64,000 nt of DNA from Promethearchaeota archaeon (GCA_016840085.1 JAEOTA010000073.1:32001-96000), one strand, 5' to 3'; counted from the stretch's first letter, positions 6,023 to 13,163 are shown. The notes: a model not told the origin generated them from the letters alone. Numbers and translations: made by a program.

Positions 6023-6508
6023 TTGCAATTGATGGTTTATGAGGATTTTCCCTATGAGCTAGCATCAAATAATCCAATTAAGGAATATGTAGAAGTACGA
6101 CCGAGTAAAATTCATGGTTTAGGGTTATTTGCTAAGAAATTTATTCCAAAAGGGACCATACTGTGGCATGCACGCCCTCAAGATGTCATAGTAATTACAA
6201 AGGATCAGTTTCTAACACTTGAATCTTCTCATAAATCTCTTACAACAACTAATATAATAGAAATTATACTTAGATATTCTTATTATGTAGTGGATCTTGA
6301 TTCTCTAATCTTTTGTGTGGATAATTTTAGATTCATAAATCATTCACCTAATGCAAACATCGGTGCTCCTGAAGATCAAAATGAATTTTGTGCGATAGCA
6401 CTACACAAGATTCAACGGGGAGAAGAATTAACAGAGGACTATACAAAATACCCTATTTGCTACTGGTTAGAGAATTATAAAGATAATTTTAATCCTTGTT
6501 GTTGGTAG
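6023..6508 (+). CDS. SET-domain protein (putative lysine methyltransferase); start may be ATG 6032
   Basis: SKIHGLGLFAKKFIPKG, RFINHSPNAN, GEELTEDY SET signature motifs; C-terminal Cys residues. Confidence 0.88.
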   Translation: MQLMVYEDFPYELASNNPIKEYVEVRPSKIHGLGLFAKKFIPKGTILWHARPQDVIVITKDQFLTLESSHKSLTTTNIIEIILRYSYYVVDLDSLIFCVDNFRFINHSPNANIGAPEDQNEFCAIALHKIQRGEELTEDYTKYPICYWLENYKDNFNPCCW

Positions 6509-6543: not shown

Positions 6544-6675
6544 TGTTAAATATTTTTAACAAGTATTTATAAAAATTCAATGTTAAATATTAGAAAAGAG
6601 GATTATAGGTCCTTAATTCATGGTCTATCGTAAGATCGAAACATTTAAATACTTATGTTAAGTTTATTTAACATA
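6544..6675. promoter_or_regulatory. Two copies of palindrome TGTTAA-N6-TTAACA flanking a TATA-like box upstream of the ABC/bPH-XRE cluster
   Basis: TGTTAA-atattt-TTAACA 6544-6561; TATGTTAA-gtttat-TTAACATA 6654-6675, just downstream of TTTAAATA 6644-6651; half-site at 6581. Confidence 0.55.
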
Positions 6676-6704
6676 GTAAAATAACTTTTTAATATAATAC
6701 ACAA

Positions 6705-7541
6705 ATGTCGAATAAAATAGAAAGAATTGCTATAAAGACCACCAATCTTGTGAAAAAGTTTGGAAATGTAATTGCTGTAAATAATTTAAATCTTAAAATT
6801 CCTTATGGTTGTACATATGGCTTACTTGGACCAAATGGGGCAGGAAAAACTACAACTGTTCGAATATTAAATTCAATTATATCACCTACAGCTGGTACAG
6901 CTAAAGTAGGTGGTTTTGATGTTATTACTCAAAGTACAGACGTTAAATTGAATTGTGGTTTCTTACCTGAATCTCCTGGGTTATATCAAAAATTAACAGC
7001 AAAAGAATTTTTAAAATTCATTGGTGAGCTGTATTATTTACCTAAAGAGGTAATTTCCGCTCGTATTGAAGAATTACTTGATATATTTGATTTAGAGGGT
7101 CGAGAAAATGATCTTTTGGAGGGATACTCTCGAGGAATGAAGCAAAAGATTTGTCTTTGTGCCGCACTAATTCAAGATCCTCAGATAATTTTTTTAGATG
7201 AGCCCACATCTAATCTTGATCCTGCTGCTGCCCGTATGGTCAAAGACCTCATTTTAGATCTCGTTAATAAAGCAGATAAAACCATTTTCATCTGTACCCA
7301 CCTTCTTGATGCTGCAGAGGAACTTTGTGACGTCATAGGCATCATTGATAAAGGTGTCTTAAAATTGGAAGGGAGCCCAAAAGATATCATTAAATCTCAA
7401 AATGCTAGTGATTTGGAAGACGCATATTTAAAAATTATGGGAGCAGTTCATATTGAAGATCTATTAGCATGGAGAGAAGAGGTCCCTAATTCAGTTAACC
7501 CTCGGAAAAATTCAAAAAAAAGAAAAAAAGCGAGAGGATAA
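6705..7541 (+). CDS. ABC-2 type exporter ATP-binding subunit
   Basis: Walker A GPNGAGKT, signature YSRGMKQK, Walker B IIFLDEP, H-loop. Confidence 0.95.
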   Translation: MSNKIERIAIKTTNLVKKFGNVIAVNNLNLKIPYGCTYGLLGPNGAGKTTTVRILNSIISPTAGTAKVGGFDVITQSTDVKLNCGFLPESPGLYQKLTAKEFLKFIGELYYLPKEVISARIEELLDIFDLEGRENDLLEGYSRGMKQKICLCAALIQDPQIIFLDEPTSNLDPAAARMVKDLILDLVNKADKTIFICTHLLDAAEELCDVIGIIDKGVLKLEGSPKDIIKSQNASDLEDAYLKIMGAVHIEDLLAWREEVPNSVNPRKNSKKRKKARG

Positions 7542-7550
7542 ATTGAAAAG

Positions 7551-9227
7551 ATGACTCTTACATCAACAAGTTTAGAAGGCCCAAAACTAAGGGAAGATTT
7601 GCTTTTTGAAGCATTCCCTGTAAAAAAGAAAGCTCTATGGAAAAAAATTGCTAAGAATGAAATTTTATTAAAGACATATCGCTTCAGAAATCATCGCACT
7701 TTGTTTTTTATCTCTCTCTATTCGTTTCTTTTCATATGGACATTCTTCTTATGTCCTCTTATGATGGATAATTTATTACCTAAAGCAGAAGTGCAAGCGA
7801 ATTCTCTTTTCAGACCCATTGTCGCAATGATTATTGAGTATGTGATGATGATATTTTTCTTTATAATATTAATGTATCCATTAAATATTGTATATAGGAA
7901 AGCTGAAATTGGTTTCAAAGAAATTTTAATTTCCTCACCTGTAAAAGCTGGTGATATTTTCATCGGTGAATTTTTAGGAAAGCTGCCGATTTACAGTGTT
8001 TTCATATTAATATTTGGTCCAATATTAATAGGTTTGTTCAATCCTTTAATTAATCTTACGTTGCTTCAATTTATGTTTATTTATTTGTCATTATTTGGTA
8101 TGGTGATATTATCTACACTGATAGGCTCTATTATTGCATCCTTTCTCGAACACAAAATCGCTAAGAGTGAAAAGGCGCGTGATTTTGGTAAATCAGTCAT
8201 AATGATCATCGCGATTGTTATGGTGGTTATAATGTACTCGATGCAGTTTCTTTTTAATTATCTTATTGAAAATCCTGAAACTAAAAACTGGTTTATGTTT
8301 TATCCATCATTTTGGTACTCAAATATCATATTATTTGTAATTGATTCAGCTTTAATAGAACAGTATGTATTAAACATATTGACCAGTTCTGTCTTGGCCA
8401 TTGGAGTTCTTTTTTTACTTTTATATATATCCATGAAGAAAGCAGACTCATTTTATACATTGGAGGGGAGCATAGAAAAGATTTCAACAAAAATAATAGA
8501 AGATAACAAATTTTATCGCATGATTGGTAAATTAACAGGAAAAAAATGGGGCGGGTTAATTGTTATTCATTTGAAAAACTATTTCAGAAAGAGAGAAAAC
8601 ATCTTAAAACTTGTATACATAGGAGGGGTAGCATCGTTAATGGCTTTAATGGTTTTATTTACTTCCGAAGAAAATTTGTCTAATGAGATAATGAGTGTTT
8701 GGATTGTAATAACTGTGGGCATGATGTTTAGTCTGATGATTGGGAGTTTTATTTTTGTCGATTCAAAGGACATTTTATGGGTATTTAAACGATCTCCACG
8801 AGGTATAAAGGGAATAGTCTACTCATACATCATGGCACTCTTCATCATTAATATTCTATTGATAATTCCGATATCTATCGTTCATGGAATAATTTACAAA
8901 TTTGACTTAGTACAGGGAATCATACATGCACTCCTATTATTAATTTTTTGTTCACTCGCGGTGACGGAAGCTGTAGGAATTCAATGTATTAATCCCTCAT
9001 TTGAAGAGAAAGGGCGAACGATGTCTGGCAATATCGCATTTGGATTTATTATTCATTTTAGTGTTATTATTGGGATAATGGTTCTATTAATTGAATTAAA
9101 TATATTAGAGTTTGTGAATCAAGGATTTATCAAATTGATATTTATCGGTCCAATAATCCTTATACATATTACATTAGCTTTTCTAATATTCTATTATGGC
9201 ATGCGAAAATTAGATAAATTGGAGTAA
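7551..9227 (+). CDS. ABC exporter permease (about 12-14 TM, duplicated ABC-2-like halves)
   Basis: Highly hydrophobic; EILISSPVKAGDIFIGEFLG ABC-2 permease-like motif; starts 9 bp after the ATPase. Confidence 0.8.
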   Translation: MTLTSTSLEGPKLREDLLFEAFPVKKKALWKKIAKNEILLKTYRFRNHRTLFFISLYSFLFIWTFFLCPLMMDNLLPKAEVQANSLFRPIVAMIIEYVMMIFFFIILMYPLNIVYRKAEIGFKEILISSPVKAGDIFIGEFLGKLPIYSVFILIFGPILIGLFNPLINLTLLQFMFIYLSLFGMVILSTLIGSIIASFLEHKIAKSEKARDFGKSVIMIIAIVMVVIMYSMQFLFNYLIENPETKNWFMFYPSFWYSNIILFVIDSALIEQYVLNILTSSVLAIGVLFLLLYISMKKADSFYTLEGSIEKISTKIIEDNKFYRMIGKLTGKKWGGLIVIHLKNYFRKRENILKLVYIGGVASLMALMVLFTSEENLSNEIMSVWIVITVGMMFSLMIGSFIFVDSKDILWVFKRSPRGIKGIVYSYIMALFIINILLIIPISIVHGIIYKFDLVQGIIHALLLLIFCSLAVTEAVGIQCINPSFEEKGRTMSGNIAFGFIIHFSVIIGIMVLLIELNILEFVNQGFIKLIFIGPIILIHITLAFLIFYYGMRKLDKLE

Positions 9228-9358
9228 TAGGTAATTAATACATAAATTTTTTTAAAATAAAATCTACCCAAAAATAGAATGAAAATAGCAGAAATTAATT
9301 TTAATATTAAATCTATAAAAATCATTTAAAAAAACAAAAAAGAGGTAATGAAAATAAA

Positions 9359-10216
9359 ATGGAAAATAAGATTATTGACAAATCTTCTTACGGGGGAACC
9401 ATCTCTAAAGATTATAGATCTAAAGAAATGTTGAAATCAGCCATTAATTTTTTCCTAATCTGTACAGGAATTACATTAATTGCTTGGTTCGCAACAGTAA
9501 TGGTGTTAACGGATGGTTTAGAAAATCCAATATATATACCGATAATAGTCTATGTATGGGTTGTAGTGTTTGCTTTTGTAATACCATTTTCTTTCTTTAT
9601 GATCATTGAATATCTATACCTTACAGCATATCTAAATGCATTTTCGTATAAAATAAAAGAAAACACCATTGTTCTCCGTCATGGGGTTTTTACTAAGAAA
9701 AAAGCGACCATTCCTTATACGCGAATCCAAAACATTAACATTGTAAATGGCGTGTTTGACAGGATGTTCAAGACATATACAGTCAAAATTGAAACTGCTG
9801 GTGCGGCAGCGGCAGCTGCGAGTGCCCAACATGGGGTTGCGAAACCTGAGGGATATATTCCAGGACTAAAAGATCCAAACATAATTGGAAGAAAAATTAA
9901 GGAGATGATGACAAAATATTCACAAGTACCAAGCGGTTTAGAAGACAAGATCTTTAAACCTGAAGAGCTGGCATTCGACAATTTCATTAGTTATATTATG
10001 TCAAAAATGCGAGAGGGTGAAAATCTTCAAACTTCCATAAGAGACAGACGTGAACAAATCAATAAATCCGCAGCGGAATTAGCAGAAGAAGTTGGAGTAC
10101 CACTTCAAACGATCAAGTATTTGGAAGAAGGAAAATATAATCCAAGCTTAGCTTTAGCATATAAAATTGCGCAAGTATTGAATTGTTCTGTTGAAGATTT
10201 GTTTAAAATTATTTAA
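9359..10216 (+). CDS. Membrane protein: 2 TM + bacterial PH (bPH_2, YdbS-like) domain + C-terminal XRE HTH
   Basis: HGVFTKKKATIPYTRIQNINIVNGVFDRMFKTYTVKIETAG (bPH_2); AAELAEEVGVPLQTIKYLEEGKYNPSLALAYKIAQVLNCSVEDLF (HTH_3). Confidence 0.85.
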   Translation: MENKIIDKSSYGGTISKDYRSKEMLKSAINFFLICTGITLIAWFATVMVLTDGLENPIYIPIIVYVWVVVFAFVIPFSFFMIIEYLYLTAYLNAFSYKIKENTIVLRHGVFTKKKATIPYTRIQNINIVNGVFDRMFKTYTVKIETAGAAAAAASAQHGVAKPEGYIPGLKDPNIIGRKIKEMMTKYSQVPSGLEDKIFKPEELAFDNFISYIMSKMREGENLQTSIRDRREQINKSAAELAEEVGVPLQTIKYLEEGKYNPSLALAYKIAQVLNCSVEDLFKII

Positions 10217-10283
10217 TTGTATTACAATTTTTTTTCTTATTTTTTCGGATTAGTTTAATCATAATAAAATGATGTGAAGAAAG

Positions 10284-11183
10284 ATTAGTGATGAAGAAAT
10301 TATATATGAAAGTTCTATTTCAAGAGATTATAGAAAAAAAGAACTTCTTAAGACTGGGAGTACATTAGCGATTAAAGACCTTATAATATGCATTGGAGTG
10401 TTCGTAATATTCGTCGTTAGTAACTATGTAATTGCAAACTCTAAAGTTGAATATGAAAGAATAGAAGCATTAGAGACTCGGGAAAACTTAATAATCATTT
10501 TACCATGGCTCATAACAATTGCTATAATATTTATTGACGGTTTAGTTTTAATCACCTATTTTATTTACTTATCAACCTATGTATCCAACTTTTCTTACAG
10601 AATCACAAATTCTTCTCTTACTCTCTCTTTTGGAGTATTTGATAAGAGACAAGTAACTATTCCTTTCAACCGGATTCAGAATATTTGTATCGTACAAGGT
10701 GTGTTTGATAGATTATTTAAAACATACACATTTAATATTGAAACAGCGGGAGGCGGAGGTACCGTCCGAAAGATCTATTCTTATGGACACGCAATTAGAA
10801 TTGGTTATCGTCCAGAAGGTTACATCCCAGGTTTAAAAGATCCATCAATCCTCAAAAATAAGATAACTGAAATGATGACACGTTTTTCCCAAATTCCAAG
10901 TGGAATGGAAGATAAGTTATTAAAACCTGAAGATCTAGCTTTTGACAACTTCACTAGTGATCTTCTTTCTAGGATGCTAGAAGCAGATGAGATAAAATCA
11001 AAGTTGAAAGAGATTAGAGAAAATAAAGGATTATCGCATATCGAATTAGCTAAAATAGTTAAATGCTCAATAGATGCGATTTTATAATTAGAGGAAGGCT
11101 CCTTTAACCCCAGTGTGGTGTTAGCTATTAATATAGCAAAAGCATTGAATTGTAAGATAAAAGATATTTTCGAATTGAAATAG
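10284..11183 (+). pseudogene. Paralogous TM-bPH_2-XRE fusion with in-frame TAA at 11085-11087 inside the HTH and no canonical start
   Basis: Frame is open from 10278 (ISDEEIIYESSISRDYRKKELLK matches paralog TISKDYRSKEMLK); after the TAA the same frame reads LEEGSFNPSVVLAINIAKALNCKIKDIFELK to TAG 11181-11183. Confidence 0.75.
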
Positions 11184-11238
11184 GAATTAACTTTAATATA
11201 AAATGAGTTGGTGAGAAGCCCTGAAATTCAAAAAGAAA

Positions 11239-11628
11239 ATGGTTTCAAGAATAAAAGAGCTTAGAGAAGCTCTAGATATTCCCCAGCTGGAGCTTGCAAG
11301 CAGGGTTGGGGTATCTCGCCAAACTATTTATTATTTAGAAAAAGGTACTTACAATCCCAAACTCACTTTATCATTTAAATTAAAAGATGAATTAAATACA
11401 TCAATAGAAGAATTATTCAAATTTGAACCCATCATACATGATATCATAGGTAATAAAACATTAGATGAGTTAGAAACAATCCATAAGAAATATGGCATTG
11501 AAATAGAGCGATTGCAGCATCTAAGAGATGTAGATGAATCAGATTTGCTTGTAGAATTTACAATGGAGGAGTTAAAGACAATTTCAAAAGCTTTAAGAAT
11601 GAAATTTGAAGATTTATTTGAAGATTAA
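11239..11628 (+). CDS. XRE-family HTH regulator with a degenerate second HTH-like C-terminal module
   Basis: RIKELRE...QLELASRVGVSRQTIYYLEKGTYNPKLTLSFKL; C-terminus ends ISKALRMKFEDLF. Confidence 0.88.
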   Translation: MVSRIKELREALDIPQLELASRVGVSRQTIYYLEKGTYNPKLTLSFKLKDELNTSIEELFKFEPIIHDIIGNKTLDELETIHKKYGIEIERLQHLRDVDESDLLVEFTMEELKTISKALRMKFEDLFED

Positions 11629-11887
11629 ACGTTTTTATCCACTTTATTCTAATTCTGTATAATTCAAAAAAATCAGGATAAGGTTTTCCATCGATATTTA
11701 TGGTATGGGTAGGAATTACCTCAGGTTCTTCAAGATTAAAGGTCTTAACCTTTAACTGTATAATGGATTTCATAATAATTCTATTGTGAGGAGGAAAGAA
11801 TTTAGTTAACGAAATTATTTTTGCATCGAATTAAATTTAACTAGAAAAATAAAGGATAATAAAGAAAAAAATAGGATTATGATTAGT

Positions 11888-13163
11888 TTATTTATATTTT
11901 AATCGTCGATAAACCAAGATTGAAGACACACCAATAACTGCAGTAACCAAATATATTAAATTATATCCTAGTATTTTAGCTTCACGTCTTCCAGGTGTAA
12001 TTTCAACTTCAATTTTATGATTATTGGAAAATGTATTACCAAAATTATTATAAGCAACCACTATAAAATAATACTCACCATTTGAATATCCACTTAATGG
12101 AAGTGAAAGTGAATCAATTTCTTCTTCAAGTAAAATTAAACTATCATTAATCTCTGTGATAGAATTGGAATATTGATAAATAGAATAATTGTTTGCTCCA
12201 CTTGAACTTGTCCATGTCAAGGTAAAATTTCCATCATTATCAGGAGTTTCTGCGTCTGAGGATAAAGTAAATGAACTCGGTGCTGTAGGCGGAGGTATTG
12301 CTACAGTAAGTTTAATACAATTTGAAGTTCTATTACCATAATTATTAAAAGCAGCACCAATAAAGTAATAAGTACCATTCGAATATCCAGAGATAGGGAA
12401 TGGTGAGGTTACGTTCTGATCTGCAAGTAATATTAAGCTATCATTAATTTCTGTGATAAAACTAGAATATTGATAAATAGAATAATTGTTTGCTCCACTT
12501 GAACTTGTCCATGTTAAGTCAAAGTTTCCATCTGTATCTAAGGAGCCTGAATCGCAAGTTAATGTAAATATTCCAGGATACTCAATAGAGTATTTCCCTA
12601 CAAAAATATCATATATTCCCATAGTGTACGTACGATTATAACCTGTTATATAAATTCTATCTGAAGAATCAATATACATATCTTGCCACCAGTATTGATA
12701 TATAGAGTTATTTGCCCAAGTTTTATCCCATAATAAATCTCCAGAGGTACTATATTTTAATATGCTTACGTTATGAAATAGTGTGTGAACACATACATAT
12801 ATTTTATCTAAAGAGTCGATACCTATACTCCATGCCTCATCATCCACCTTTGTTCTCCATGTTCTATTCCATTTCCAATTACCATCACTATCATATTTCA
12901 CAAGGAAATCCAGTGACATATATATCTCCATTTAGTTCATTTACCGCAATACCTCGTCCATATTCATTATCTCCATTATCATATGATTTATTCCAGTCTT
13001 GAATAAATGAAAGTTTAAGTTTATCAGAATCAGATTGATCATTTTCTTTGTTTTTGGAAGTATCATCATGTTTGGATAGGAAGTCATTATTAAGATAACT
13101 ATTAATCAATGGTAATAAAAGTAGAAGAAAAACAATAACAAGTGTGTATTTTTTAATCCTCAT
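11888..13163 (-). pseudogene. Frameshifted surface protein: signal peptide, SBBP-like beta-propeller repeats, two FN3/Ig-like repeats, Loki-CTERM-like anchor
   Basis: ORF 12891-13163 (signal peptide...GDIYVTG) joins ORF 11888-12931 (FLVKYDSDG...) across a frame break at ~12908; tail ILGYNLIYLVTAVIGVSSILVYRRLKYK. Confidence 0.75.
12168..12514. repeat. Intragenic direct repeat, 297-bp period, with a 50-bp identical core
   Basis: 12168-12217 is identical to 12465-12514; encodes TWTSSSGANNYSIYQY twice. Confidence 0.85.

Follow-up and report, generated by a model that had tools for sequence, protein, structure and literature searches.

A membrane-anchored bPH_2–XRE fusion and a soluble XRE partner beside conserved palindromes at an ABC exporter promoter of a Promethearchaeota archaeon

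The DNA analyzed here, referred to as the window, is a stretch of 64,000 nt from a Promethearchaeota archaeon (GCA_016840085.1 JAEOTA010000073.1:32001-96000), and all coordinates are positions within it. The locus under study (6544–11628) holds five co-oriented plus-strand reading frames between 6705 and 11628. These encode an ATP-binding cassette (ABC) transporter ATPase (6705–7541), a 558-residue ABC exporter permease with 12 transmembrane (TM) helices (7551–9227), a 285-residue membrane protein in which two TM helices and a bPH_2 domain precede an XRE-type helix-turn-helix (HTH) domain (fus1, 9359–10216), a diverged second copy of this fusion (fus2, 10269–11184) and a soluble XRE protein of 129 residues (11239–11628). 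The Pfam scores are 63.8 bits for bPH_2 (PF03703) and 53.1 bits for HTH_3 in fus1, 62 bits for bPH_2 in fus2 and 55.3 bits for HTH_3 in the soluble protein, with cut-offs of 22 bits (bPH_2) and 23 bits (HTH_3). The gene set and its common orientation agree with the original prediction, made from the DNA alone, except that two intact fusions had been proposed and fus2 is interrupted by two in-frame stop codons.

The spacer ahead of the ATPase gene is 196 nt long. It contains CGAAAC followed by TTTAAATA (6637–6651 together, TTTAAATA at 6644–6651), which, by the usual layout of archaeal promoters, we take to be a BRE-like element (TFIIB recognition element) and the TATA box. Two exact plus-strand copies of the palindrome TGTTAA-N6-TTAACA, both already pointed out in the prediction, bracket TTTAAATA. 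The distal copy, the putative operator O1 (6544–6561), lies 100 nt upstream of the TATA box. The proximal copy, the putative operator O2 (6656–6673), begins 4 nt after the TATA box and covers the expected transcription start; the ATG of the ATPase follows 31 nt beyond it. A site just behind the TATA box and over the expected start occupies the classical position of an archaeal repressor. O1 and O2 are the sole exact copies within the window. The 4.68-Mb genome contains 10 matches to TGTWAA-N6-TTWACA, with ~12 expected by chance, and a scan of it found no paired sites at a TATA box besides O1 and O2, so that no other regulon member is indicated. The palindromes are thus unremarkable by number, and it is position and conservation that make O1 and O2 non-random. 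A scan for bacterial-type promoters and terminators was set aside as uninformative for an archaeon.

The conservation was examined in the 10-kb loci of 40 relatives, where nearly all palindrome matches with at most one mismatch fall 60–215 nt ahead of the leading gene of the group. Among 31 same-family promoters, the distal site is present with at most one mismatch in 23, most of them 51–131 nt from the TATA box, and the proximal site is present with at most two mismatches, 3–5 nt after TTTAAATA, in 9 (shuffled sequences gave a mean of 0.26 and a maximum of 3). Most of the remaining same-family promoters have a form whose half-sites are one base closer together (e.g. ATGTAA-N7-TTACAT), and the block cgaaacaTTTAAATA is also kept in the promoters of relatives. 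In most same-family relatives the operator position is retained whatever the gene order; in the nearest relative (locus L045), which also has the ABC genes first, the sites stand ahead of the ATPase rather than the fusion. The anticipated recurrence of the palindrome in orthologous promoters is thus borne out at this position for most close relatives. Promoters of distant lineages carry other palindromes there, often in two or three copies: TGCAACC-N3-GGTTGCA, GTGTCAA-N6-TTGACAC, TGTCAAGT-N2-ACTTGACA, AAAGCTAAG-N4-CTTAGCTTT, ATGTAAAGT-N2-ACTTTACAT and GAATGTAAA-N6-TTTACATTC.

Some relatives carry further promoter elements. At seven loci (L036–L038 and L046–L049) the leader from O2 to the fusion start is long (~130 nt) and includes a conserved block, TGATCATTTTTTAAATCGATTGG, and an extra TTAACA half-site ~25 nt before the ATG; the short leader of the window lacks this feature. 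The block and half-site could be a second promoter or a further binding site. At L085, L086 and L087, the stretch between the short XRE gene and the ABC ATPase contains four to six repeats of the CATATG/CCATAT type, which immediately precede a TATA-like box and lie ~60–130 nt ahead of the ATPase start, and related TCCATA-N8-TATGGA palindromes lie upstream of the fusion at L067 and L081. Motifs of this type could constitute a second operator.

A fus1 polypeptide unites a membrane anchor with a domain of the DNA-binding type. It comprises TM1 (residues 18–50), TM2 (62–94), bPH_2 (~95–188), a linker (189–216) and a CylR2-like HTH (222–285); the Pfam matches span residues 94–151 (bPH_2) and 227–281 (HTH_3). 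In the AlphaFold2 (AF2) model, built from 63 sequences with a mean predicted local distance difference test (pLDDT) score of 80, long helices at 18–50 and 62–94 (pLDDT 85–95) are separated by ~10 residues and form a two-helix membrane hairpin directly before the pleckstrin homology (PH) domain. The latter is modeled as a β sandwich (96–146) plus a strand (165–170), capped by a helix (173–188), for which Foldseek returned a single and weak PH match (3dcx, E 1e-2). Ring-shaped oligomers have been reported in structural work on bacterial PH domains. A low-confidence segment (189–203, with pLDDT below 50 at 191–193) and a helix (204–216) lead to the five-helix HTH (227–281). Segments rich in Lys and Arg lie N- and C-terminal of the hairpin, before TM1 and after TM2, and by the positive-inside rule both termini are predicted to be cytoplasmic, an N-in/C-in topology with the HTH on the cytoplasmic side. 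Because the hairpin exposes only ~10 residues, little external sensing would be possible.

The region between the PH domain and the HTH had been described as one conserved linker. Residues ~189–216 are a true linker, but AF2 assigns the preceding part, from PEGYIPGL to ~188, to the PH domain, as its last strand and C-terminal helix. The alignment of the fusion family (A1) shows invariant linker positions at F199, F206, D207, F209, Y212 and K216. Among solved structures the nearest relative of the fus1 HTH is CylR2 (phmmer E 3e-9; Foldseek 46–47% identity, TM-score ~0.87), and the modeled HTH superposes on CylR2 and DR_2454 with TM-scores of 0.84–0.89. The wing motif LE.G..NP, which had been singled out as shared by the HTHs of the locus, is a signature of the subfamily, CylR2 included, and is not specific to this locus.

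The soluble XRE protein is modeled by AF2 (pLDDT 85) as two five-helix domains. Residues 1–62 form a canonical CylR2-like HTH, with the recognition helix GVSRQTIYY and the Gln that starts helix 2 (PQ...). This N-terminal domain matches DR_2454 with a Z score of 12.2 and an RMSD (root-mean-square deviation) of 1.2 over 62 residues, and XRE structures generally with Z scores of 10–12. Residues 65–118 form a second, degenerate HTH-like domain. The fold-search matches span mainly residues 1–63 and scarcely cover the C-terminal fold, and a BLASTP comparison of one half of the protein with the other gave no match. The homology of the second domain to HTH domains rests on the five-helix model and on Pfam matches in distant orthologs, in which the C-terminal half, degenerate in the window, passes the HTH_3 threshold (35.0 bits at L069 and 33.5 bits at L070). 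The soluble proteins of relatives begin M/L-KFKKK; in the window, positions 11221–11241 read CTG-AAA-TTC-AAA-AAG-AAA before the ATG, so that the ancestral start codon has seemingly been lost and the protein begins six codons later.

The two kinds of HTH differ in the residues expected to contact DNA. As in CylR2, the canonical set was defined as the Gln of helix 2 plus Ser/Thr-Arg-Gln-Thr opening the recognition helix. At all 43 loci with a soluble partner the soluble protein is canonical in the HTH residue table ([ST]RQ[TM][IV] and the Gln starting helix 2). Among the 43 fusions at these loci, 40 are missing the Ser/Thr-Arg pair and 36 the helix-2 Gln. The recognition helix of fus1 is correspondingly derived (GVPLQTIKY), its helix-2 Gln is absent (SAAE...), and this derived form is nearly invariant within the family (GVP[LIV]QTI[NK]Y). 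Where the partner is missing, the fusion HTH is canonical (8/8 loci) and palindromes are still present. The canonical helix also follows the type of operator from one protein to the other. The helix SRQTINY occurs with GTCAA-type palindromes and is located on the fusion at L067 and L081 and on the soluble protein at L064, L071 and L085–87; [ST]RQTI[YSLI]Y occurs with TGTWAA or ATGTAA types and is located on the soluble protein in the window's family and at L069, and on the fusion at L068, L089 and L090.

Since the soluble protein keeps the contact residues and the fusion has lost them, the most economical interpretation for the window's genome is that the soluble XRE protein is the operator-binding repressor and that the HTH of the fusion has been repurposed, most likely for pairing. 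Direct promoter binding by the anchored HTH is likely in the partner-less relatives and doubtful for the fusion of the window. Of the two mechanisms put forward in the prediction, trapping of the soluble XRE protein at the membrane by the PH oligomer fits this residue pattern better than holding the fusion's own HTH there.

The same data bear on an alternative in which it is the fusion that recognizes the palindromes, thereby tethering the promoter to the membrane, and the soluble XRE protein competes with it, acts as co-repressor or occupies one of the two sites. Partner-less relatives evidently work in this way, the fusion helix is strongly constrained within the family and retains the Gln-Thr-Ile of the canonical helix, and the half-site spacing of O1 and O2 is one base apart in many loci, which could mean two binders. 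Yet the Ser/Thr-Arg pair and the helix-2 Gln that most fusions with a partner have lost are kept by every lone-binding HTH in the set. The fusion recognition helix does differ between lineages that differ in operator too; as a sign of DNA binding by the fusion, this covariation is displaced by the canonical helix, which tracks the operator better, and fusion helices differ even where the operator type and the canonical soluble helix are the same (L071 versus L085–87). This alternative is therefore considered possible but rather doubtful.

The full-length fusion was found only in the class that includes Lokiarchaeum among the matches listed. A word-indexed search returned at least 410 clusters at 90% identity, the best 120 of which are all 237–294 residues long and contain both domains; those with names come from Lokiarchaeota, Promethearchaeota or Hodarchaeota metagenome-assembled genomes and are annotated as 'PH domain-containing protein'. 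The fusion is thus no rarity within its clade. A profile search of 1.84 billion representative proteins gave ~25 full-length clusters at 50% identity, the named ones all Lokiarchaeota or Promethearchaeota, followed by multi-bPH proteins (best 150 of 40,016 hits), and the Atlas neighbor with both domains is 100% archaeal. In a scan of 400 genomes of the phylum, 88 of 134 genomes of the window's family had a match. Full-length matches came from this family, from three others in its order and from a single additional family within the class; the rest of the phylum yielded only bPH-only or HTH-only fragments. The cultured Ca. Lokiarchaeum ossiferum has three copies of the module (L065, L066 and L090). 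A literature search for the fusion found no describing paper, in line with the suspicion that it had not been described.

The module is a stable single- or few-copy feature across the whole class, a distribution that argues against an anti-virus defense or toxin–antitoxin-type cassette in which XRE proteins control a membrane effector. XRE HTHs are frequent in such cassettes, and weak PADLOC matches to the capH, RmrA and control-protein models were obtained, but these span the generic HTH only, and the bPH part and the permease have no PADLOC match; a cassette of this kind is very improbable.

Fifty-six loci were fetched, 51 of them distinct loci used for the adjacency counts. The constant core is the fusion and an adjacent soluble XRE gene, which lies ~20–140 nt 3' of the fusion in about four fifths of the 56 loci; the soluble partner is 122–143 residues long in the window's family and those closest to it, and 64–69 residues long in another family. 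An ABC ATPase on the same strand and within 4 kb accompanies the core at 22 of the 51 loci, in at least six separate clades, and the family tree demands at least six separate origins or losses of this adjacency. Chance adjacency is ~4%, given the 52 ABC ATPase loci of the window's genome. The regulated promoter thus carries the exporter as a cargo that recurs but can be absent. The proposed synteny of fusion and ABC genes is borne out as a recurrent association and not as a constant one. The exporter-first arrangement is limited to the window and its nearest relative (fusion 88% identical). Ten relatives of the window's family have the order fusion, soluble XRE, ATPase, permease, with A-rich gaps of ~45–120 nt, and no operator was found before the ATPase in these ten. 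The prediction of a membrane sensing and transcription module controlling an exporter can accordingly be retained as a conserved fusion/XRE pair with an operator before the exporter in the window.

The ATPase of the exporter is DrrA/ABC-2-like. It scores 93 bits with PF00005 and 245 bits with the drrA model TIGR01188, under the 312-bit cut-off of the latter, and its orthologs in relatives are 78–84% identical. The permease reaches ABC2_membrane_3 marginally (32.1 bits, cut-off 31.6), has no match in NCBIfam and has 12TM_1/ABC_tran_2 clusters as its Atlas neighbors. It is one of five paralogs in the window's genome; the other four (33–50% identity) are on contigs C44, C19 (two copies) and C51 of genome G000. 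The distant family to which Ca. L. ossiferum belongs has a linked ATPase with 34–38% identity to that of the window, again followed by a 12-TM permease of 572 or 591 residues (in the Ca. L. ossiferum copy L100, 12TM_1 scores 35.3 against a threshold of 33.2).

It might be argued that the module regulates only itself and that the exporter is a passenger, neither target nor source of the signal. The exporter is missing at 29 of the 51 loci, the confinement of the ABC-first order to two genomes is in keeping with a passenger, and the pair's other neighbors are unrelated (primase subunits, Ada/MGMT and short-chain dehydrogenases). In five relatives, none of the six examinable promoters of unlinked exporter paralogs (0/6) carries the palindrome. 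Against this stand the adjacency in at least six clades over a ~4% background, the recruitment of two very different ATPase groups (78–84% and 34–38% identical to the window's), each followed by a 12-TM permease of 540–590 residues, and the location of the exporter behind an operator-bearing promoter in both gene orders. A mere passenger is, on balance, unlikely.

Among the other neighbors, a SET-domain protein (PF00856, 49.9 bits) is encoded at 6023–6508, directly upstream of the regulated promoter, and a SET-domain protein 75% identical to it has the same position at L045. A probable surface protein of 347 residues is encoded on the minus strand at 11888–12931; it contains two ~90-residue repeats (DGNF.LTWTSSSGANNYSIYQYS...), ends in a hydrophobic anchor and cannot be assigned clearly to a Pfam family. 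At L064 and L065 (the latter in Ca. L. ossiferum), a protein of 702–718 residues with a β-lactamase/transpeptidase-like domain (PF00144, 180 bits) is encoded between the short XRE gene and the ABC ATPase.

The second fusion copy, fus2, is probably a pseudogene, a decaying duplicate. Its stops are a TGA at codon 3 (10275–10277) and a TAA inside the HTH (11085–11087) at the Tyr of the ...KYLEEG... motif. After the TGA the first start codon is a GTG in the middle of TM1, and the longest clean open reading frame (10398–11087) is without half of TM1 and the HTH wing. The recognition helix is degenerate and lacks the canonical contact residues, and the end branch on the family tree is 1.2, compared with a median of 0.17. 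Stop-codon recoding was ruled out: TAA, TAG and TGA all end neighboring genes, and one of the internal stops is TAA. No second fusion copy was seen at the other loci examined.

Decayed fusion copies occur at L052, L053 and L096 (genomes G241, G240 and G252) and at L095 (G229:C46). All four share a TAA at the same codon, that of the Glu in PSGL-E-DKIF, directly after PSGL, and in three of them a frameshift and a deletion fuse the start of the fusion HTH to the tail of the soluble XRE protein. In G240, G241 and G252 the decayed copy is the sole match in the genome scan. Copies that stop exactly after PSGL in four genomes could be taken to speak for regulated proteolysis, in which the linker (PSGLEDKIFKPEE...) would be cut and the HTH freed from the membrane, as in other membrane-tethered transcription factors; the linker's invariance at several positions and its low model confidence (pLDDT below 50 at 191–193) are compatible with this. 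However, no protease gene is conserved beside the module, and the shortened copies also have frameshifts and deletions and look decayed rather than functional. Proteolytic release is thus quite improbable.

Taken together, we favor, with a probability of about 0.5, repression by the soluble XRE protein at both palindromes, with the membrane fusion supplying the signal input, probably by pairing with the soluble protein. The soluble XRE protein would bind O1 and O2 as a repressor and, when on O2, would keep the transcription machinery from assembling at the TATA box and the start site. The fusion, as its pairing partner, would retain it at the membrane or let it go when cued by the membrane or the exporter; the cue might be the membrane's own state or come from a nearby membrane protein, for instance the exporter. 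The output in the window's genome would be expression of the 12-TM ABC exporter, driven directly by the regulated promoter. In the partner-less relatives the fusion presumably does both jobs, as a membrane-bound one-component regulator. A more specific version is offered tentatively: a kinase-free relay from membrane to promoter, built of three XRE-type domains in two proteins, in which the hairpin could take its signal only from inside the membrane or from a partner such as the 12-TM exporter, and the repurposed HTH would dock or release a soluble CylR2-like repressor and so couple exporter or membrane state to transcription, the partner-less state being ancestral.

Several points count against the favored interpretation. 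The position of the sites is the sole ground for expecting repression as the effect of binding. The near-invariance of the derived fusion HTH indicates that this domain is functional, and it could bind DNA at the same or another site. The linker invariants are kept even in lineages without the soluble partner; the linker is therefore not solely for docking the soluble protein. The correspondence of helix and site is broken at L084, where the soluble helix is SRQTVSY and yet the sites are TGTCAA. The loci without an exporter and the palindrome-free promoters of unlinked exporter paralogs, mentioned above, weigh on the same side. Finally, runs of T follow the permease gene (T7, 9247–9253) and fus1 (T8, 10228–10235, and T6, 10240–10245), and TATA-like A/T blocks precede fus1 and the soluble XRE gene, which suggests that the regulators may be transcribed apart from the exporter. 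In the window's genome perhaps the exporter alone is under operator control and the regulators are expressed from their own promoters. A T5 run directly 3' of the final stop codon (11632–11636, plus strand) is a possible archaeal terminator.

Signal-dependent gene regulation in Asgard archaea is, to our knowledge, almost entirely uncharted. The module offers defined proteins, two 18-bp putative operator sites at a TATA box and an ABC exporter as output, together with natural variants in the form of one- and two-protein versions and several operator/helix pairs, and its presence in the cultured Ca. L. ossiferum makes it experimentally tractable. If the proposed scheme is true, it would be the first role in transcription control for bPH_2 membrane proteins, which are poorly understood even in Bacillota, and a case of a duplicated DNA-binding domain turned into a signaling module.

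The nearest functional analogue is the CylR1/CylR2 pair of Enterococcus faecalis, in which a suspected membrane protein and a small HTH repressor regulate cytolysin without a kinase (PMC3709268). CylR2 is the closest relative of the locus HTHs among solved structures, and the soluble partner of one related family is CylR2-sized (64–69 residues). The published description of CylR1 is of a small protein predicted to have three transmembrane helices and mentions neither a PH domain nor an HTH (PMC3709268), whereas the membrane partner here has the 2TM-bPH_2 build and an HTH of its own; it is set apart from CylR1 by this description only. The soluble partner in the window further differs from CylR2 in its second, degenerate HTH, and the promoter is an archaeal one with a TATA box.

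Membrane-bound one-component regulators, such as BcrR, ToxR and CadC, likewise combine anchor and DNA-binding domain in one polypeptide, and the partner-less relatives fit this class; BcrR, itself of the XRE type, controls the operon of an ABC exporter. Unlike members of this class, the anchored HTH of the window has lost the canonical contact residues, which its soluble paralog has kept. ArnR and ArnR1 of Sulfolobus are archaeal representatives (PMC6396743). Compared with ArnR-type regulators the domain order of the module is reversed, with the anchor N-terminal and the HTH C-terminal, and bPH_2 serves as the putative sensor or anchor.

The 2TM plus bPH_2 build of the fusion is that of YdbS (PMC8657885). 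Export of enterocin DD14 requires DdE and DdF, whose genes lie upstream of ddHIJ, the genes for an ABC transporter (PMC8657885), which provides a precedent for bPH proteins being functionally linked to an ABC exporter. Nonetheless, YdbS/YdbT and DdE/DdF, all from Bacillota, are without a DNA-binding domain, and their similarity to the fusion is limited to the domain; among the best 150 of 40,016 hits in the 1.84-billion-protein library, the remaining strong bPH_2 matches are to proteins with bPH alone or with several bPH domains. In SinR/SinI an XRE repressor is opposed by a protein that arose by duplication of a portion of that repressor, and the N-terminal fold of the soluble XRE protein matches SinR (1b0n, Z score of 10.4). 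Here, in contrast, the putative antagonist is a whole HTH on a membrane protein, and no SinR-type C-terminal hook is evident. The module is thus a clade-specific, uncharacterized variant of membrane-linked, kinase-free regulation.

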